The notes under the pieces are model-generated. The model was given only the letters and a program-made list of their open reading frames with translations, was not told the origin of the DNA and did not search any database. Positions 19,365 to 63,407 of a DNA stretch of 64,000 bases are shown one piece after another; the stretch's first letter is position 1; each line of letters opens with the position of its first letter. A program made the position numbers and the translations under genes. This DNA is from an uncultured Verrucomicrobiales bacterium. Lineage in GTDB: Bacteria; Verrucomicrobiota; Verrucomicrobiia; Verrucomicrobiales; DEV007. The stretch lies in NCBI GenBank assembly GCA_938091905.1, contig CALKOM010000014.1:1-64000 (forward strand), given 5' to 3'.

Positions 19365-20000
19365 ATGCCATTGACCGACACCCAGACGCAAGAGTCTCCA
19401 CCAAAGACTGGTCTCGAAGACGAGCCGCGCACCGCGCAAGAAGCACGCTGGGATGAGAACTTCGCCAAACTAGCATTACGCTATGCCGGAGGAGAACACG
19501 CCGATGTCCTTTACGCTCCTTGCGGGAGTACCGGACAATTCTACGAACTCCTGGCAAGCCGCGCGAAGCATCTGCATCTCGTCGAAGACAATCCCGCCAA
19601 ACTCGAATCCCTTCTCGCCACTCATCCGGATGCCAAACGCTGGGAGCCCCAGGTTGGCGAAGTCGCAAACCTTCCTCTAACAGACCAAAGCGTAGACCTC
19701 GCGTTCTGCATGCATCATTTCTACGACCTGCAGGATTCGGAGTCTCGTCTTGCGGCGCTCAAGGAACTCGCCCGCGTGAGCCGCCGTTACGTCGCCATCA
19801 GCGTGCATGACCGCGCGACCCTGAGCTATATTCGCAAACGCATTCGCAGCGAGAAGTCGTTCCCGGACTCTCTCAGAATGGCGACCATCCTCAAAGAGGC
19901 TGCCCACGCTGATCTAGGATTGGTGCTCAAGCACCCAACACTATCACTGTTCGCTTATCAGCGCTCGCTACTCTTCGAGAAAACTTCAGCGCGAGGTTAA
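19365..20000 (+). CDS. Class I SAM-dependent methyltransferase (divergent motif I)
   Basis: VLYAPCGSTG, LPLTDQSVDLAFC, ALKELARVSRRYV. Confidence 0.75.
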   Translation: MPLTDTQTQESPPKTGLEDEPRTAQEARWDENFAKLALRYAGGEHADVLYAPCGSTGQFYELLASRAKHLHLVEDNPAKLESLLATHPDAKRWEPQVGEVANLPLTDQSVDLAFCMHHFYDLQDSESRLAALKELARVSRRYVAISVHDRATLSYIRKRIRSEKSFPDSLRMATILKEAAHADLGLVLKHPTLSLFAYQRSLLFEKTSARG

Positions 20001-21007
20001 AGCATGCCCCGAGCAACCAGGTTGTTGAGACGGTGCGCCACATTCTCAACCCCGTCCAACACGGTATCGCTGTAGCTACGACCATCGGTCGTATCAATGC
20101 CATGCCCGGAGTCCAGCTTGCGAAGCCCTTCCAACGCAGGGTCCTCATGGTGAAAGAGTTCGACGAAAACATACTCCAGCTTACCTGTCTTCGCACAAGC
20201 AGCCATGAGTGCGCCAATCCACCCATCATCCGTGGTTAGGCAGCCGCGCGTGGTCTTGCTAGAAGCATGGAACATCCCGAGCTCTCCCGCTTTGGCCATG
20301 TCACGAATCACGGCCTCATTCTCGGGAATGGTTAGGCTGGAATCTCCACAGTGAGCAGCATCTACCATCACCTTGAAGAAGGCCTTACCTAGAGCCTTGT
20401 TCGTGGCTTTGACGATTGACCACGCCTTGCCTACATCCGTGAAGGTCTGAAACTCGCCACCCCGCAGAAACTCCATGTGCCATGCTTTAATACCACTGTT
20501 AGCAAGATCAGCCTCAGCATAGGCTCGCACATGCACTTTCACATTCTGAGCAACAGCGGCATCAAAATCAGCGCCCACTTTGGGAGTTGCCCCTGGCTTC
20601 ATCCATTCTTCGATCGATGTAGAAGCCACTTGGGTAATCTCATGTTGTTTAGCCAGGGTCAACCCATCCACCAGCATGCCAACGACCGCATCTTCGTCGT
20701 CGGGATTCATCGGATCAGCTCCACCGACCATGAGAATGAGGTGCACGGCCAGCCCCAGCGCCTTGAGACCCTCTATCATCTCATCATTATCTCCGGGCTC
20801 GACTCCTGGAAACACCGAAATCTGCACACAGTTAAATTTGACCGACGATTTCTGCACCAAGTGGGCCATTTCTGTAACAACCAAAAGCTTGCCATCCTCG
20901 CCGCGAGGCAGTCGGCCCTCTTCCGGAACCAGCCCGCCCACAAACTTGATGTGCGTAGGCACGATCCCGAGTTCCACCGATGTTCTGAGTGTGATGCTTT
21001 CAGCCAT
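19997..21007 (-). CDS. TIM-barrel sugar isomerase/epimerase-like protein (xylose isomerase-like fold)
   Basis: HMEFLRGGE, MVDAAH, FHAS...RG, VELF metal-site pattern as in ketose 3-epimerases. Confidence 0.7.
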   Translation of the reverse strand: MAESITLRTSVELGIVPTHIKFVGGLVPEEGRLPRGEDGKLLVVTEMAHLVQKSSVKFNCVQISVFPGVEPGDNDEMIEGLKALGLAVHLILMVGGADPMNPDDEDAVVGMLVDGLTLAKQHEITQVASTSIEEWMKPGATPKVGADFDAAVAQNVKVHVRAYAEADLANSGIKAWHMEFLRGGEFQTFTDVGKAWSIVKATNKALGKAFFKVMVDAAHCGDSSLTIPENEAVIRDMAKAGELGMFHASSKTTRGCLTTDDGWIGALMAACAKTGKLEYVFVELFHHEDPALEGLRKLDSGHGIDTTDGRSYSDTVLDGVENVAHRLNNLVARGML

Positions 21008-21105: not shown

Positions 21106-22770
21106 ATGATCCGTCCTCTCGCGATCGTTTTGGCCTCTATGATGGTGAGTCCTATCTCCCTAATCGCCGACTCAGTGTGGGTTGAAGGAGAAACCGGTCA
21201 AACCACCAACCTGCGCAAGAACGGCTGGTATTCGTCCGTTCGAGCACAAGATTTGTCCGGAGCGGACTGGCTTGCCACGTATGGAAGTGATGTTCCCGTC
21301 GTCGCCACCTTTCCTCTTACGTTCACAAAAGCTGGGAACTACACGTTGTGGGTTCGAGCAAATCCTATCAACGCAACACTTCACGCTGCAATTGGTGCTT
21401 CAGAAAAATGGTTAGAAGTTCCTATTTCCTCAGATCGCCATGAAATAATTAACATTGCCTCTGATGGCAAACCAGACCTGCGCTTCCTCGCATGGAGCAA
21501 AGTTGGGCCGATATCGCTAGTAGAAGGCGAAACAAGACTTCGCTTTCGAATGTCTTCCAAGAATCGCAACCATGGTGCCATCGATTGTTTCTGCCTCACC
21601 ACCGACTCCGAGTGGAAACCAATTGGTATCTTAAAACCTAACGAATCTTCCAGTTGGCCCGCGCCAAAACTAACAGACACCAATCTCAGCCACTGGAGCG
21701 AATTCATTCGCCCGTCCGAAAAAGATCTCTCCTGGCGTGGCGTTCGTTGGCACCGCCATCTCGATGAAGCCGCGGCGGAAGCCAGCGACCTTGGGCGCCC
21801 CGTTCTCCTTTGGGCGATGAATGGGCATCCATGTGGTGAGACATGAAACAATGACGTCAAAGGACGCGACGAGATCTGGTCAGATCTCAACCTACAAAAG
21901 CTTTCCAAGGAATTTGTCTGTGTCATCGAGGAAACCTTTCATCTCCACCCGCCAAACTGGCTCAAGGATCCTCCGAGACCAAAGAGCACTGCGCTCTATC
22001 GCACCTATGTGAAGAATGCACCCAAGCTCTGGCCTAAAAACACCAGCACCTATCAAGGGTTCTATCTTATGAGCCCCACCGGTGACTACCTAGGTGGAAA
22101 CTTCGGCATTGTTCGTGAAGAAGAAGCGCGCAACTTGATGACAACAGCGTTAGAAAAATGGAAAGCGACGGGTGCGGCCATGCGCACCGTTTCAACGAAC
22201 CCTCCCGCCCTCTATGGTGGGAATGAGCCCCAACCTGGTTCTCTGAAACTGCAGCTCGCCTACCGTGACCTCCCACGCGGTGACGTTGAAAGACCAACCA
22301 CGGTCTACGTTCAGAATCCCTACAACCTCGGATGGTTTGATTTCTCAAAAGAGGAGGCGCGTGCGCTTCTCACAAAATCAGAAGAGCCGGTCACAATCCC
22401 GCACTCACTCTTTGCTAAGATGGCCACTCGAACACTAAAGGACGCTGTTCGGGGCCAGATGTCACGGTGGGATAGCTCGGCACTCCACTCTGGCTCCCTC
22501 ACTACGCAGCGAATCTTGAAAGCCGGTTCGCGGAGCTCCTATCGCCTAAAAGGATCCGTCAATCTGTCAGAGAATGAACGCCGCTATGAAGTTCAGTTGC
22601 TCGGCAAAGCCGTTTACGATGAACGCCTGCAGGCCTTTTTTGAATTTGAGCTCGTCGCCGTAGGCCAACGTAGTGGCAAAGGTGGTGCCAATGGCCGCGA
22701 AAACGATCTCGGACCTGCACCAATGGGAGTAGCTTTCAAGCTCTATCGATCACCCAAAACGAGCCGCTAA
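21106..22770 (+). CDS. Probable exported selenoprotein (~554 aa, Sec at codon 247): beta-sandwich domain plus thioredoxin-like domain
   Basis: Single frame with only TGA 21844-46 interrupting: ...RPVLLWAMNGHPCGET-U-NNDVKGRDEIWSDLNLQKLSKEFVCV..., continuing in frame into the 22009 ORF. SECIS-like hairpin downstream. Confidence 0.8.
21871..21888 (+). promoter_or_regulatory. Candidate bacterial SECIS element
   Basis: GAGATCT-GGTC-AGATCTC perfect 7-bp stem. The G-initiated loop begins 31 nt after the TGA. Confidence 0.7.
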
Positions 22771-22923: not shown

Positions 22924-23277
22924 TCACCCCGATGCTCGGCGGAAAAGCGCTCGCACCCGAGCAATGAGCTCTTTCATGCTGATGGGCTTCACCAAATAAT
23001 CATCTGCGTCCGTCTCCAGTCCAGCCACGCGATCATCTACCATGCCTTTGGCTGTCAACATCAGAATGGAGGGCTTACAACTACGACGCCGCAACTTCAG
23101 ACACACTCTGTAGCAATCCACCCCGGGCATCATCACGTCGAATAGAATCAGATTACAAGCGCGCTCCAAGCCAAGTTGACCATCTTCAGCTGTGGCCACA
23201 CGAGAACCATGCCCCCGCAAGGCCTCTGCTAGAGCCATCCTTATGGCCAGTTCGTCATCGATGATGAGTAGACTAGT
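22924..23277 (-). pseudogene. OmpR-family response regulator remnant (receiver only; start codon and DNA-binding domain lost)
   Basis: LLIIDDELAIRMALAEAL...LILFDVMMPG..ILMLTAKG..DRVAGL...ADDYLVKP..MKELIARVRALFRR, then stop. Confidence 0.8.
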
Positions 23278-23470
23278 CTAGGTACCGGACTTGGGTCGTG
23301 GAAACCGCAAGGTGAAGGTACTGGCTTTACCAGAAGCGCTATCAAGCATGACCTTGCCGCCGTAAGCCATAAGTAGCATTGACGCCACAGGTGCTCGCAA
23401 TTCATGCAACACGCGCGCCACAAACCGGCTCTCGATATCACTCGCGACGCAATGCATGCTGTGTCAACGC
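23278..23470 (-). pseudogene. Sensor histidine kinase remnant with large internal deletion
   Basis: Manual translation: SRFVARVLHELRAPVASMLLMA joined directly to YGGKVMLDSASGKASTFTLRFP*. Confidence 0.7.
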
Positions 23471-23619
23471 CAAGTGGTGCGTCTTTCAATCCACGACAGC
23501 AATTACGGTGATAACGCTTGTAGGGTTAAGAAGACGTTCAAAAATATTGTCATAACACCACGACCACGCCGAATGCAGCGTTCGACCATCATTCTTCTCC
23601 CACTGCGATGTCGTAAATT

Positions 23620-25193
23620 CTATAACACCGCCCCACTCAAGTATGGGCAGCGGGAATGACCCACTGAAGACGACATCGATGATCTCCTTCCGGGTGGTGC
23701 GACAGATTCTCGCACGTTGCCAGTCGACACTCTAATTATTCGGTCGTTGTGTCTTAGGAGTATTGGCCCAATCAGCAAGATGGCAGCCAAGCTGGGTGTC
23801 TCGCCAGAACCTGTCGCCAACAGTGTTTGATAGAGTATCTGCGGAAGGCATAGTGTGCTCGCTCCCTGCTTCTTCCATTCAAGATAACGCAATCGCATCG
23901 TATGGGCGCGCATAGGTCTACCCTGAACTTCGGCCCCAGGATCGGCCCCACGTGCGATCAGCTCCTGAGCCTCATCCCACTTCTTATCTTGCAGAGCATG
24001 GAACATGCGGTGTCTTCTCCTGATTATCACCGGCATCGATTTCTGCAACGGCCTCTATCAATGCTGGCACTAACTCGAAAGCCCCACCACGAACAGCTGC
24101 ATGTAGAACAGTCCCGCAAAACCGGTCCGTCATGGTTAGATCTGTTCGCGAAACAAGCTGGATGGAAAACTTGAAACGCTCACTGTCTGCAAGCGCTTAA
24201 TGAAATGCTGAGGGATATTGTCCCACAACAGCACTTACATCCGCGCCTTGCAGTGAGAGCAAAGCAAAGATCTCGTTTTGATCGCGGTCGATAGCCCAGA
24301 TTAGCGGTGTCGGTTCTCCTTCCGCAGCGACGAGATTCAGATTAGCATCCCGCTCATGCAACAGCTTCACAAAGGGATGTCCATCGCGAAGGACGGCAGG
24401 ATCTAACATCATTATTCTCCTTTCGCGTTTCTTGCCGTCAAAGCGAAACAAATCGTTCTTGATCTCGTATATGCCATTTGGAGTAGAATTCCTGTTCAAC
24501 AACAGCCTACCGACACTCTGGAACCCACTCACAATCGCCTCTCCTAGAGGAGAGCCGCACTCGATATCCACGCCTGACGTTATTAGATATTCACATGCTT
24601 TTAGGCGCCCATACTGCGCAGCGATCGAGAGAGCTGTTTCGTGATCGATATCCACGCCATTCTTGAGAAGAAACTCTAGAACCCGCAAGTGTCCGTTCCT
24701 AGCAGCTCGATGGACGGGAGCGTAACCTTCTTCCACGGCAGAAATCAGAACTGGGCTGTCTGAGATGATCTTGCTCAGACGCTCACTCTCCCTCGCTTCT
24801 CCCTCGCTTCTTCATCAAGCAAATCGAGCGCCGTTTCTACTGAAGAAGCTTTCTCTCACAAGGCGAGTAGATTCTCTCGCCTGAGCCGGGCAAGCGAATC
24901 ATGCGCGGGAAATTCGGCAAGCTACTGCAGATAAAGCTTCACTGCCTCCTTAGGGCGGTTCTGCTTACGCCGGACTTCGACGAGCCAGAAGAGCGCTGTA
25001 GCGGCGAACTGGCGATGGGAGTGGTAAGTCTCCAACAGCTTCTCATAGCCCGGGGCCGGTTGCGTCAGGCCTTGAGAGGCTTCCTCCTCAATTAGAGCCT
25101 CACGAAGAAGTTTCTCCAAGTCATCTCTGCGAGATTCTTGAGCAGAAAGGCTAAAGTAACAAGAACCGAAAGAATGAGGATCGATGGCTTCAT
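23620..25193 (-). pseudogene. Fragmented secreted TPR/ankyrin-repeat protein
   Basis: ATG 25193 gives MKPSILILSVLVTLA, then a frameshift to LLREALIEEEA...AATALF..., an in-frame stop, and ankyrin pieces (GYAPVHRAARNGHLRVLEFLL; TPLIWAI; ELIARGADP) in different frames. Confidence 0.75.
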
Positions 25194-27453: not shown

Positions 27454-28239
27454 CTATCGCCTCACCCGGACCTCATCCGCGCTCGCCAGTACGCACCTCT
27501 TTCCTCCGCCAACGTCCAAGACGAGCTCACCTTCCGACCCAAGGTCAATCGCAGTGCCCTCAATAATCTTCACGCCAAGGCGGGCTCGTACCGGTTTGCC
27601 TAACAAGTAATGAGCCTTCTTCAACTCCGCCAATTGCTTTGCAAACGCCTCAGCTGGCGAACTCAGGATATCCGAGAGGCGATCAAGAATCCCGGCAGCA
27701 AAACCTACGCGGTCAATCCAGGTTCCCGTCACCTCCCGCAGCGACGTGGCAAGGTCTCGAATCTCCTCGGGCAATTCATCCTGTTGGACATTCACATTTA
27801 CCCCAACACCAATCACGGCAGAAGCTTCTCCACCACCTTGCATCTTCGTTTCAGCAAGTATTCCTGACACCTTACGATCCCCCAGATACAGGTCATTGGG
27901 CCACTTCACGAGGGGAGACGCTGGCGGATAGCCCTCAAGCGCTCGCTTCAAAGCCAACGCCGTCAGGTGCGTCAGCCTTCCCCAGTCACGTAGCGGCCAA
28001 GCTGGCCGAACCCGGCAAGAGAAGAGGAGATTGCTCTCGGGCGGCCCTCCAAACCAAACGTTTCCGCGTCGCCCACGACCCGCCGTTTGCCGTTCAGCAA
28101 ACAGCACCGTGCCAACAGTTTCTGAACCAACTGGCAAGTCGAGCACCGCATCGTTCGTCGAGGCCACCTCATCCGTCACGTGAATACTCCAGGCATCTTC
28201 ACGCTCCAGAGCAGCACCAACACTTTCCGCATCAAGCAC
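27454..28239 (-). CDS. birA: Biotin--protein ligase
   Basis: [35 protein letters not shown]. Probable GTG start overlapping the trpG stop. Confidence 0.93.
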
Positions 28240-28813
28240 TGCCTGGACTTGGTAAGTCGAGGAAGTTCTGCAAAAGCTGCTTCCCATTCTCAGTCAGAAT
28301 AGACTCTGGATGAAACTGCAAACCATGAATCGGATACTCACGATGCTGCAAACCCATGATCTCATTCTCAGCCGTTTCCGCCGTGATCTTGAGCACCTCC
28401 GGAAAGGTCTCTCGTTTCACAATAAGAGAGTGATAACGGGTCGCCTCAAATGAGTCAGGCAGACCCTCAAAGATACTCTGCCCTTTATGGAGAATGGGGG
28501 ACGTCTTGCCATGCATGAGACGCTCGGCGCGAATGACATCCCCGCCAAAGACCTGACCGATGCATTGATGTCCAAGACAGACACCGAGAATCGGAATCGT
28601 CTTTCCAAAGGCACGCACCACTTCACAACTAATACCGGCTTCTGCTGGTGTGCAGGGACCAGGGGAAATACAGATCTTGTCTGGTGCAAGCTCACGGATT
28701 TCATCGATGGTGATCTCGTCATTCCGATAGACTTTGAGATCGGCACCGAGCTCACCAAAGTACTGCACCAAGTTGTAGGTGAACGAATCGTAATTATCGA
28801 TTACTAACAACAT
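28232..28813 (-). CDS. trpG: Anthranilate synthase component II (glutamine amidotransferase)
   Basis: [36 protein letters not shown]; adjacent to trpE. Confidence 0.93.
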
Positions 28814-61148: not shown

Positions 61149-63407
61149 ATGGTCAGAGCGGCCCTCCTGCTTCTCTTGCTCCACGCAACGGTGCTCTCAA
61201 TAGTGAGTGGTGCTTCCGCTTGGAAAGCAGACGTCCTCCCTTTCTTTGAGAACTATTGCTACGACTGCCACGGTGACGGCACGGAGAAAGGCGACCTTTC
61301 CCTGAATGGCTACCTCACGGAAGCCTCCGTTCTTAAGGACATCAAGGTCTGGGATACGATCAAGTATCAGGTGGAGAACTGGGTGATGCCGCCACCGAAT
61401 AAAGCACAGCCAACACCGACAGAGCGTAAGATGGTCGCCACCTACTTGGAGAATCTGCTCTACCCCTGCGACTGCGACATTCCTGATCCTGGCCGCACTA
61501 CCATCAATCGACTCAATCGCGAACAATACGATGCGCGACCTCGTCGGCATCGATGTCAGACCCACAGACATTTTCCCAGCAGATGATTCAGGCTATGGCT
61601 TTGACAACATCGGCGACGTGCTCACGATTCCGCCCATCCTCATGGAACGGTATCTTATCGGAGCTGATAAGGTCCTCGATGAAGCGATCTTCACGGGGCC
61701 ACCAGAGTCAATCACTAGGATCCACGATGCTTTAGTCATGATGGGAGGTAAACGCTCCGAACAAACCGCACGTGTGTTAGATAAGCTAGGAACAGTAAAA
61801 GTGAGGCACCAGTTTAGACATCAGGGCGACTATAAGATCCGGGTGCGCTTGGGAATGGATAGATCGTCGAACGAGGGACTGAAAACGACGCTCTCCCTCG
61901 ACAAGAAGGTCGTCCACACGGCATCCGTGACCGCTAGCAAGCTTCGCCCAGAAGCGATTGAGACCACCGTGACGGCAAAAAAGGGAGTTCGGAGGTGATC
62001 ATAACTCTCAAAGGGAATCCCGGTAGGAATCGGCTCTTTGTGACGCCAATCGAGATAGAAGGACCATTCCAACCAAAGGCCGATCGGCTACCGCCGTCGC
62101 ACACCGCCATCTTTGGCTAAGTTCCTGGCAACCGTGATCTCAGAACAGCGGAACGTACCATTCGGAGATTCGGTCATCGCGCATTCCGTCGCCCTATCAA
62201 GCCTGATGAAGTCAAGCGGTTGGTAAAGTTCGTTCAGCTCAGTCTGAACCGCGGCGACGGCTTCGAGATGGGAATCAAACAAGCACTCAGAGCTATGCTC
62301 GTTTCGCCACACTTTCTGTTTCGAATCGAATGGCTGCCCGAGCCTAACAATCCCAAACGTGTTGAAGCCGTCACTGAATACGCTCTCGCTTCCCGTCTGT
62401 CTTACTTTCTATGGAGCAGCATGCCGGACAACGAGTTGCTGTCGCTCGCTTTCAAAGGTGAACTCCGCAAGCAACTCAAGCCACAAATCATGCGCATGCT
62501 GGCTGATCCAAAAGCGAACGAGCTTGCACGCAACTTCGGCGGTCAGTGGCTTGAGCCCCGCAACCTACAGGTTCACGAAGCAAATGGGGAGAAGTTTCCT
62601 GAATTTACCCCCAAATTGCGAGACGCCATGGCTCACGAGACGGAGGAGTTCTTTCTACACGTCATGCGTAAGAATCGGCCAGTGACCGAGTTTTTGACTG
62701 CAGACCACACCTTCGTCAACGAACCACTGGAAAAATATTACGATTTGAAGGGAGTCTCCGGACAGGATTTCCAACGTGTTTCTCTAGCAGGCACTCCGAG
62801 GCGCGGCGTGCTCACTCACGCCAGCGTACTCACGGTGACCTCCGATCCCACGCGCACGTCACCGGTGAAACGCGGCAAGTGGATACTAAACAATCCGTTA
62901 GTCACCTCACCACCACCTCCTCCACCGAACGTCCCCGAGCTAGAAGAGAATGACTAAGCCGAACTTAAGGGCAGCTTGCAAGCACGAATGGAGAAATACA
63001 GAGATATTCCTGGGTGCGCGTCATGCCATCGCTTAATAGATCCGTTAGGCTTTGGCCTTGAGCACTTCGGCCCACTCGGCGCCTGGCGAGACAAAGATGG
63101 CGCCTATTCCATCGAGGCAACGGGCGAGCTTGTTTCTGGGCAGCAGTTCGAGGGTTCAGATGAACTCATTGGCATCCTCGATACCAAGAAGCGTGATCTC
63201 TATTACAAATGCCTGGCTCACAAACTACTCACCTACGCTCTTGCACGAGGCCTCGAATACTACGATCGCTGCGCAGTCGATGAAATTCAGGGTAAATTGG
63301 GGAAAGACAGCCGCTTCAACACCGTGGTAATGGCGATTGTAGAGAGCATCCCGTTTCAGAAACGTCGGGGCGATGGATATGTCGAGCCAGATCGAAGCAA
63401 GCGGTAG
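61149..63407 (+). pseudogene. Fragmented planctomycete-type cytochrome c / DUF1587-1595-1592-1588-1585 protein
   Basis: CYDCH, RLNREQY, FPADDSGYGFDN, LVSPHFLFR, LASRLSYFLWSSMPD, TSPVKRGKW, CASCH spread over several frames. In-frame TAA at 62955. Confidence 0.88.

Follow-up and report, generated by a model that had tools for sequence, protein, structure and literature searches.

A probable selenocysteine codon in a thioredoxin-like gene of an uncultured Verrucomicrobiales bacterium and the apparently undescribed protein family around it

We analysed a stretch of 64,000 nucleotides (nt) of an uncultured Verrucomicrobiales bacterium (assembly GCA_938091905.1, contig CALKOM010000014.1, positions 1 to 64,000; hereafter the window), in which two open reading frames (ORFs), 21106-21846 and 22009-22770, are separated by a TGA codon. 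An earlier note made from the letters of this DNA had proposed that they form one hidden selenoprotein gene. We conclude, with a probability of about 0.9, that the two ORFs are one gene whose internal UGA encodes selenocysteine (Sec). The continuity of the gene and the conservation of its UGA are direct observations across relatives, and so is selection at the RNA level on a hairpin located at the distance expected of a selenocysteine insertion sequence (SECIS). In bacteria, Sec insertion depends on a stem-loop downstream of the UGA that is bound by SelB. The encoded protein belongs to a large selenoprotein family that seems to be undescribed.

A single TGA interrupts one long reading frame

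The gene and the two codons on which the argument centres are the following (positions are those of the window):

21106..22770, + strand: whole gene, from ATG 21106 to the terminal TAA 22768-22770, with one in-frame TGA; 554 residues when read through
21832-21834, + strand: TGT codon of Cys243, four residues ahead of position 247 (C-x3-U)
21844..21846, + strand: in-frame TGA, read here as selenocysteine U247 from the conserved TGA column, the Cys homologues and its position in the structural model

The upstream ORF ends with the TGA at 21844-21846, and the downstream ORF shares its frame (offset 903 nt, i.e., 301 codons). The 162 nt between both ORFs (21847-22008) are stop-free and translate as NNDVKGRDEIWSDLNLQKLSKEFVCV..., while the residues leading up to the TGA are ...GRPVLLWAMNGHPCGET; around the TGA, which is position 247, the read-through protein is ...LLWAMNGHPCGET-U-NNDVKGRDEIWSDL... 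The start ATG 21106 was chosen because N-terminal database fragments from close relatives open with MIRPLAL... or MNRPLAL.... The same-frame ORFs, the protein-like intervening stretch and the Cys four residues before the TGA had all been pointed out in the earlier note and are present in the sequence, as is the absence of any other lesion, the TGA being the single one in frame in 554 codons.

A six-frame scan of the window for long frames broken by TGA alone flagged seven segments, and 21106-22770 is the sole site in the 64 kb where one TGA joins two long coding pieces (260 + 307 codons). In the other six segments the pieces do not exceed 160 codons, save for one pair of 127 + 279 codons (27457-28800, - strand), which corresponds to two adjoining Pfam-annotated genes sharing one frame.

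The TGA is conserved in relatives from seven phyla

A tblastn scan of one genome per GTDB species with the read-through piece led to the identification of 64 loci. The alignment crosses the stop in 62 of them, with query residues 1-353 matched, which agrees with the expectation of the earlier note that similarity should be found on both sides; the remaining two (L060 and L064) match the last 35-61 residues only and were left out of the site count. The codon aligned to the TGA of the window is TGA in all 62 covering loci and in all 63 sequences of the alignment, within the motif MNG[HN]P-x-G/A-x-T-U-NNGV-x-GR. According to the record titles, the carriers belong to Verrucomicrobiota, Planctomycetota, Kiritimatiellia, Omnitrophota, Armatimonadota, Chloroflexota and Myxococcota. 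The arrangement HPCGETU (C-x3-U) seen in the window is conserved in the first 23 loci (L001-L023), and the remaining clades present either GCTU/ACTU (C-x-U, the majority) or G/A-S-T-U without Cys. The peptide right after the stop, NNGV-GR--VWSD, ranks among the best-conserved parts of the protein. In one locus from a Fimbriimonadaceae (L059), the frame past the Sec codon runs for 229 codons to a further TGA, compared with 300-350 codons in the other 62; the gene may be truncated there, a second TGA may be recoded, or the assembly may be in error.

Word-indexed searches covering 5.8 billion proteins gave a picture of the same gene as it is stored in databases. The whole read-through query returned 73 matches, none of them spanning both halves. 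A 359-residue query around the TGA returned 142 matches; among the 120 listed, none covers more than 83% of the query. The matches fall into two groups, C-terminal fragments that start a few residues past the TGA column (e.g. MGRREIWSD...) and N-terminal fragments of 231-247 residues, and all six N-terminal fragments that were retrieved terminate in ...LLWAMNGHPCGET. A HMMER profile built from 32 read-through sequences was searched against 1.84 billion cluster representatives and matched 3073 proteins at E <= 0.001, 1765 at E <= 1e-10 and 444 at E <= 1e-30. Among the best 150 of the 3073 matches, 135 begin past the Sec column (profile position at least 63) and 15 cross it; the predicted starts of the downstream halves scatter from profile position 63 to 135.

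These data bear on the possibility that the TGA is a genuine stop, yielding a 246-residue protein followed by a second protein (e.g. from GTG 22009) or by the remains of a dead gene. Databases do store both halves as separate ORFs, broken genes adjoin at 22924-24133 and no Sec machinery was seen within the window, all of which would fit such a reading. Against it, all 63 sequences carry TGA at the internal position, yet these genes terminate in a mixture of stops (17 TAA, 22 TAG and 24 TGA), so that the internal TGA is not simply the favoured stop codon. Separate halves divided by other stop codons, which the earlier note had named as an argument against Sec, were never encountered, the halves being divided by neither TAA nor TAG in any relative. 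The peptide just past the TGA is highly conserved while the downstream predicted starts vary (63 to 135), continuous Cys forms exist (see below), and a stop at this place would part strand 1 of the thioredoxin fold from helix 1 in a confident model (predicted local distance difference test, pLDDT, of 93). A nonsense lesion would not persist across seven phyla, and a pseudogene similar to the neighbouring genes was rejected on the conservation of the TGA in 62 of 62 loci. We therefore consider a genuine stop to be highly improbable.

Cysteine is the commonest residue at the Sec column of continuous homologues

Twenty-one proteins span the Sec column without interruption, 15 from the profile search and six from a later word-indexed search. 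The residue at the column is Cys in nine, Ser in five, Ala in two, Asp in two, and Arg, Gly and Trp in one each. The Cys forms parallel the Sec forms (GSTC-SNG compared with GSTU-NNG, and CTC or CNC compared with CTU); in the spanning forms with neither Cys nor Sec, other invariant motifs are degraded too. The earlier note had expected homologues with TGA or Cys at this column, and both were found, in 62 of 62 loci and nine of 21 spanning proteins, respectively. It had also named Trp, Arg and Gly as residues that would speak against Sec: each of them occurs once among the 21 spanning proteins.

In four homologues (P0197, P0296, P0298 and P0325) the whole core forms the C-terminal part of a protein with an N-terminal Pkinase domain, P0197 possessing Kelch repeats in addition. 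Among these kinase-fused homologues, Cys is present at the Sec column in P0298, and no Cys is found there in P0197, P0296 and P0325. The fold is therefore used without the selenol as well, perhaps as an extracytoplasmic sensor domain.

In the homologue P0340, a Trp occupies the Sec column, and the residues around it are exactly those of the Sec forms (ACV-W-NNGV). Judging from this context, the Trp is probably a TGA that was translated as Trp by the gene caller of the source. P0340 as printed, together with the diverged homologue P0318 that has Gly at the column, are the data that could suggest a decoding of the TGA as something other than Sec, either through a reassigned code (Trp or Gly) or through near-cognate read-through. 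The carrier phyla use the standard code, TGA is the terminal stop of many genes both in the window and across the loci, and Cys is the sense residue most often seen at the column (9/21), which makes non-Sec decoding very unlikely. A general reassignment of TGA was rejected, the gene being the single split frame of such kind in 64 kb.

A hairpin with a GGUC loop is selected at the RNA level

Two hairpins lie downstream of the TGA in the window:

21871..21888, + strand: SECIS-like hairpin, 7-bp stem GAGATCT (21871-21877) / AGATCTC (21882-21888), apical loop GGTC (21878-21881)
21855..21866, + strand: first, weak hairpin between the UGA and the GGUC hairpin, 4 bp CGTC/GACG, loop AAAG

The perfect GAGATCT-GGTC-AGATCTC hairpin described in the earlier note was confirmed at 21871-21888, with its GGTC loop beginning exactly 31 nt past the TGA. 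The bacterial SECIS (bSECIS) model, as outlined in the consulted part of a recent review, has an apical loop of 3-9 nt on an upper stem of 4-16 bp. The first or second nucleotide of the loop is a G, in most cases with G or U after it; the loop lies 16-37 nt from the UGA, and the free energy is at most -7.5 kcal/mol (PMC13188914). The hairpin of the window conforms to the four geometric rules (4-nt loop, 7 bp, G first in the loop, 31 nt). Its free energy is -7.2 kcal/mol alone, and a 70-nt fold that includes both it and the small upstream hairpin reaches -12.9 kcal/mol. Both strands of the window (128,000 positions) contain 49 hairpins with at least seven perfect base pairs, a loop of 3-9 nt and a G in the first two loop positions; 0.008 such hairpins would therefore be expected in the 22 allowed positions after a given UGA.

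The SECIS-like character claimed in the earlier note extends to the relatives, in which the hairpin is conserved with compensatory changes. A GGUC loop at the same position is closed by at least five contiguous pairs in 41 of 63 sequences. The stem columns 43-54 contain 30 GC, 20 AU and 10 GU pairs with two unpaired cases, and the columns 42-55 contain 46 GC, six CG, one AU, one GU and one UA pair with seven unpaired cases. The covariation score of the stem is 0.196, compared with 0.130 ± 0.009 in shuffles (0/500 reach 0.196) and with 0.034-0.117 when the partners are slid. Complementary codons are formed from differing flanking residues (GAG...CUC, UUC...GAA and GUC...GAU), and five pairs of the GGUC helix are changed on both sides.

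The stem encodes the conserved peptide I/V-W-S-D, and we therefore examined the synonymous sites. In 43 of the 50 sequences with W-S the Ser is encoded by TCA, a codon that makes up 7.6% of the 1072 Ser codons in the remainder of these genes, and the Val codon in the GGUC hairpin is GTC in 28 of 29 cases, against a background of 39.5%. This codon bias reflects selection acting on the RNA rather than on the protein. The hairpin at SECIS distance is under RNA-level selection.

The first hairpin has 6 bp in most relatives (GGCGUC NNNG GACGCC; alignment columns 22-37, corresponding to window positions 21853-21868). It is paired in 75.5% of cells with slight covariation, and a synonymous bias is present here as well (Gly GGA in 34/47 compared with a background of 16.9%; Val GTC in 48/62 compared with 39.5%). 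These features, together with the lack of the GGUC hairpin in 22 of 63 sequences and the statement in the consulted part of the review that many bSECIS elements fit no single model (PMC13188914), raise the possibility that the gene is indeed decoded with Sec and that the working SECIS is the first hairpin (21855-21866) or a composite of both hairpins. The loop of the first hairpin starts 12 nt past the UGA, outside the 16-37 nt range, the hairpin has only four pairs in the window, and a single pair is changed on both sides in it versus five in the GGUC helix. We thus regard this arrangement as rather unlikely, although it deserves far more credit than the two readings without Sec discussed above, and we retain the GGUC hairpin as the candidate SECIS.

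The protein combines a CBM-like module, a thioredoxin-like domain and a conserved beta domain

The read-through protein can be divided into four parts:

21106..21171, + strand: predicted signal peptide (residues 1-22, MIRPLAIVLASMMVSPISLIAD), hydrophobic N-terminus
21169..21600, + strand: CBM6/CBM35-like beta-sandwich (residues ~22-165), all-beta in the model over residues 23-165
21670..22164, + strand: thioredoxin-like domain with the Sec codon (residues ~189-353), from the AlphaFold model and fold matches
22237..22749, + strand: C-terminal beta-rich domain (residues ~378-548), with invariant motifs RDLPR, D-VRGQ and N-R--D-GPAPMG

Residues 4-13 are modelled as a lone helix with low confidence, and hydrophobic leaders also begin the homologues of the core family. 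The full-length AlphaFold model has a pLDDT of 81.6, the blocks of its N-terminal domain being at ~75-92. A Foldseek search of this domain against the PDB returned 87 matches at E <= 0.001, the top-listed ones being mostly carbohydrate-binding modules (CBM) of the CBM6 and CBM35 families (e.g. 2cdp_A, E 1.2e-6, TMt 0.64; 2w1w_B, TMt 0.72). This agrees with the carbohydrate-binding-like beta-sandwich predicted in the earlier note. The number of codons ahead of Sec, counted from the first ATG, is ~240-260 in the first 18 loci (with L001, L002, L010 and L014 outside this range) and ~75 in most others; the N-terminal CBM-like module is specific to the Verrucomicrobial clade. The same N-terminal domain also heads proteins of ~890 residues, named GH5 or GH42 by some sources.

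The core of the family, from 58 residues before Sec to the end, was modelled separately with AlphaFold2 from a 32-sequence alignment (model m0801ed5d329c; mean pLDDT 93.2, predicted TM score 0.90). Residues 1-165 of the core model adopt a thioredoxin-like fold, a single domain that spans the UGA site. Sec, residue 59 of the core model, immediately follows strand 45-50 and stands at the N-terminal end of helix 60-68. The attacking Cys of the CxxC motif of thioredoxins likewise sits at the N-terminus of helix 1. No PDB match to the core was obtained with Foldseek at E <= 0.001; the top rows are nevertheless all thioredoxin-like (TMt 0.53-0.68), including 3f9u_B (E 4.5e-3, TMt 0.63), 3ira, 7tkv (Thioredox_DsbH), DsbD-gamma and DsbH, with a TMt of 0.68 for 1vrs_E; the best matches are of the DsbD-gamma/DsbH type. 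The model and these fold matches support the thioredoxin-like Sec domain suggested by the earlier note. A PDB sequence search gave nothing below E 0.26. For the beta domain (core-model residues ~190-360) there is no confident Foldseek match, the weak rows being LolA/OmpA-like (prob 0.04-0.30). The invariant motifs of the family are RD-PR, D-VRGQ, N-R--D-GPAPM and T-QG-Y.

Observations that argue against a Sec-decoded oxidoreductase

Several results weigh against the proposed interpretation, at the level of the RNA, of the protein or of the genome. The conserved peptide I/V-W-S-D by itself also forces much of the GGUC hairpin. The stability of the 86-nt fold around the site is unremarkable (z = -0.28; 67 of 200 shuffles fold equally well), and the minimum-energy structure of these 86 nt does not contain the GGUC hairpin. 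RNAalifold gives an empty consensus across all 63 sequences, and Rfam gave 0 matches over the whole window. A strict filter (perfect stems, hairpin energy <= -7.5 kcal/mol) was passed by seven of 63 sequences and by 59 of 1260 codon-shuffled controls; this filter, based on perfect stems and on the energy of the hairpin alone, is too crude to discriminate, and we thus relied on covariation and codon bias instead. The GGUC hairpin is missing in 22 of 63 sequences, mainly those of the Chloroflexota-type clade (A-F-S-D) and also part of the Planctomycetota G/A-S-T-U clade, which must therefore use another element.

Twelve of the 21 spanning homologues carry neither Cys nor Sec, which indicates that the fold also has non-redox uses. 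The full-length model, which is based on a shallower alignment, is poor at the Sec loop (pLDDT <50 over residues 240-252), and the function proposed below is assigned by analogy. Finally, neither selA, selB, selD nor a tRNA-Sec was detected within the 64-kb window (0 genes in the tRNA scan; 49 ORFs scanned), and no other selenium-metabolism gene was present among the 49 scanned ORFs.

Comparison with known selenoproteins and thioredoxin-like families

The protein of the window has no Pfam match at E <= 1, CBM models included, and no Pfam model reaches its threshold in 10 read-through homologues. The nearest model, Thioredoxin_7 (PF13899), gives at best 20.8 bits (E 4.1e-4) compared with a cut-off of 27, and four of the 10 homologues match it at E <= 0.061, the weak score coming from the helix-1 pattern past the active site. 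With the Thioredoxin_7, DsbD-gamma and DsbH types (PF13899; 3f9u, 3ira, 7tkv, 1vrs and 2ju5) the family shares the fold, the location of its reactive residue where helix 1 begins and the presumed extracytoplasmic setting. It differs from them by its motif, C-x(1 or 3)-U-x-x-G instead of C-x-x-C, by a loop (NGHPxGxT) inserted ahead of the active site, and by the conserved C-terminal beta domain of ~190 residues, which is missing from those types.

In NCBIfam (June 2026), where curated selenoprotein models are kept, the sole signal from a selenoprotein model comes from VPGUxxT (NF041382/NF041383), with 11.8-14.5 bits compared with cut-offs of 350/275. The VPGUxxT types 1 and 2 (termed 'OS_HP5' in PMC13188914) are likewise thioredoxin-like with Sec, and the signal covers the stretch around Sec; the family studied here lacks the VPGU motif, having HPCGETU or GCTU instead, and differs in length and in the remaining sequence. 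Table 1 of the 2026 review compiles 119 prokaryotic selenoprotein families with model accessions and motifs (PMC13188914). None of the 119 families combines the motif and the architecture of the present family, none of the listed Pfam or NCBIfam accessions was matched, and no fusion of a CBM-type module to a selenoprotein is included (PMC13188914). Families that have only cd or PTHR identifiers were set apart by motif (UxxC, UGC, UxxS and UGH) and not by model. The N-terminal domain resembles CBM6/CBM35 by its beta-sandwich fold (Foldseek E 1e-7 to 1e-4, TMt 0.60-0.72); it gives no Pfam CBM match, so that the likeness is one of fold alone. The author of the earlier note did not recognise this architecture among described selenoprotein families, and it is indeed absent from Pfam, NCBIfam and the 119-family table. 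We found no description of the family in the literature, although the supplementary tables of metagenomic selenoproteome studies and of groundwater metagenome-assembled genome (MAG) studies may hold it; in its consulted part, the review cites a groundwater-MAG study for unvalidated new selenoprotein candidates (PMC13188914). All the source names that we saw for family members are 'hypothetical protein'.

At the RNA level, the closest analogue is the SECIS of the fdhF type from Escherichia coli, a stem-loop within the coding sequence that follows closely on the UGA and whose small apical loop starts with G-G/U. The loop of the E. coli fdhF SECIS is GGUC, as in the window, and lies nearer to the UGA than the 31 nt observed here. 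The window hairpin also differs by having no evident bulged U and by the second conserved hairpin that separates it from the UGA. Bacterial selenoproteins that have a thioredoxin fold and depend on a downstream stem-loop for decoding are a known kind, and what is unusual here is the upstream partner Cys, the new beta domain and, in the clade of the window, the CBM-like module.

A doubtful relationship with eukaryotic selenoprotein N

A protein-language-model search (ESM Atlas) placed a cluster of eukaryotic Selenoprotein N (SelN) at rank 2 (0.91, 194/256 features) for P0193 and at rank 1 (0.89, 183 features) for P0264, two natural Cys-form members of the family that are 31% identical to each other. 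These scores are level with those of clusters that are evidently the Planctomycetota clusters of the family itself, and the likeness is one of feature vectors only. According to the consulted parts of two reviews, SelN has its Sec at residue 458/462 of ~590, in a SCUG motif within a luminal thioredoxin-like domain. The luminal side is topologically extracytoplasmic, where the Sec of the bacterial family would lie too; in SelN, a Cys directly precedes Sec. SelN differs by its membrane anchor and EF-hand, and also by its domain order, since its Sec lies near the C-terminus. The same parts of the two reviews make no mention of bacteria. A search with a 29-sequence profile (8000 candidates, 190 matches) was filled by the family itself, with no SelN name among the 120 matches listed, and provides no evidence either way. 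That the family is a bacterial counterpart of eukaryotic SelN, in which Sec would stand in for the leading Cys of CxxC while its partner would have moved upstream (C-U in SelN, C-x-U or C-x3-U in the family), is a tentative suggestion which we consider doubtful.

Proposed decoding and chemistry

By analogy with the established SelB/SECIS mechanism, the mRNA just past the UGA (21844-21846) would fold as the ribosome arrives there, and the GGUC hairpin is the most likely bacterial SECIS. This hairpin would be recognised by SelB loaded with Sec-tRNA(Sec), and selenocysteine would be inserted in place of termination. The product would consist of a signal peptide, a CBM6/35-like beta-sandwich, a thioredoxin-like domain and the conserved beta-rich domain. 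We infer its export from the presence of a hydrophobic leader, as in the members of the core family.

In the active site, Sec247 would be the nucleophile, sitting where the attacking Cys of a CxxC motif would be. The second position of CxxC is occupied by Gly in most relatives (U-N-N-G) and by Asp in the window (U-N-N-D); with such a U-x-x-G site, the usual second Cys is therefore absent. The upstream Cys243 would be the likely resolving partner, forming a selenenylsulfide with Sec247, and the enzyme may thus function as an extracytoplasmic selenol/thiol oxidoreductase cycling via this bond. The invariant Arg/Asp/Asn-rich beta domain could provide the substrate site, probably between the thioredoxin-like and the beta domains, and in the Verrucomicrobial clade the CBM-like domain would tether the enzyme to a glycan. 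We put at about even odds that the protein is a thiol/selenol oxidoreductase with an extracytoplasmic substrate, metal binding being the main alternative function.

Genomic surroundings

Clustering of the 1298 ORFs of 63 regions revealed no neighbour common across phyla and clade-local synteny only. No sel genes stood out in this clustering, in which the neighbours were not scanned against family libraries. In the window, the divergent upstream neighbour (19997-21007, - strand, 336 aa) has no Pfam match at 1e-5 and is not conserved beside the gene in other phyla. Directly downstream, 22924-23489 (- strand) contains remnants of a two-component gene: a 104-aa ORF that matches a response-regulator receiver domain from profile position 13 onward, and a 59-aa ORF that has no Pfam match at 1e-5 and resembles, by eye, a histidine-kinase phospho-acceptor box fused with the end of an ATPase domain. 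These remnants are probably the 'pseudogenes nearby' of the earlier note. Further on, at 23620-24736 (- strand), Ank repeats were matched at 24197-24736, and the short ORFs 23984-24133 and 23620-24048 resemble more fragments; these ankyrin-repeat pieces may be one broken gene. At the end of the window, 61531-61998 (+ strand) encodes DUF1587 (PSD3) and 62220-62957 (+ strand) encodes DUF1595, DUF1592 and DUF1588. Such domains usually occur in one large protein of Planctomycetes and Verrucomicrobia, and the split at 61531-62957 may correspond to a frameshifted or broken gene.

Implications for the family

Annotation splits the gene wherever we examined it and keeps the halves as separate ORFs. 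Since its records are split and 'hypothetical', with 3073 matches among cluster representatives, the family is missing from the selenoproteome counts of Verrucomicrobiota, Planctomycetota, Armatimonadota, Chloroflexota and others. A family model would mend thousands of records and would provide a marker of Sec use in phyla with few listed selenoproteins. If our interpretation is correct, this would rank among the largest selenoprotein families not yet recognised, its Sec forms far outnumbering the Cys forms among close relatives. Its active site would be unusual, reading U-x-x-G (U-N-N-D in the window) and accompanied by a Cys upstream or by none, and its combination of a thioredoxin-like Sec domain and a conserved beta domain would be new. 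Should the likeness to SelN turn out to be real, a bacterial family would be tied to a human myopathy protein, and its Sec forms, Cys forms and kinase sensor domains would offer a tractable model for the chemistry of this human disease protein. In marine Verrucomicrobia, the fusion to a module of the glycan-binding type hints at a redox reaction that takes place at the cell surface or acts on polysaccharides.

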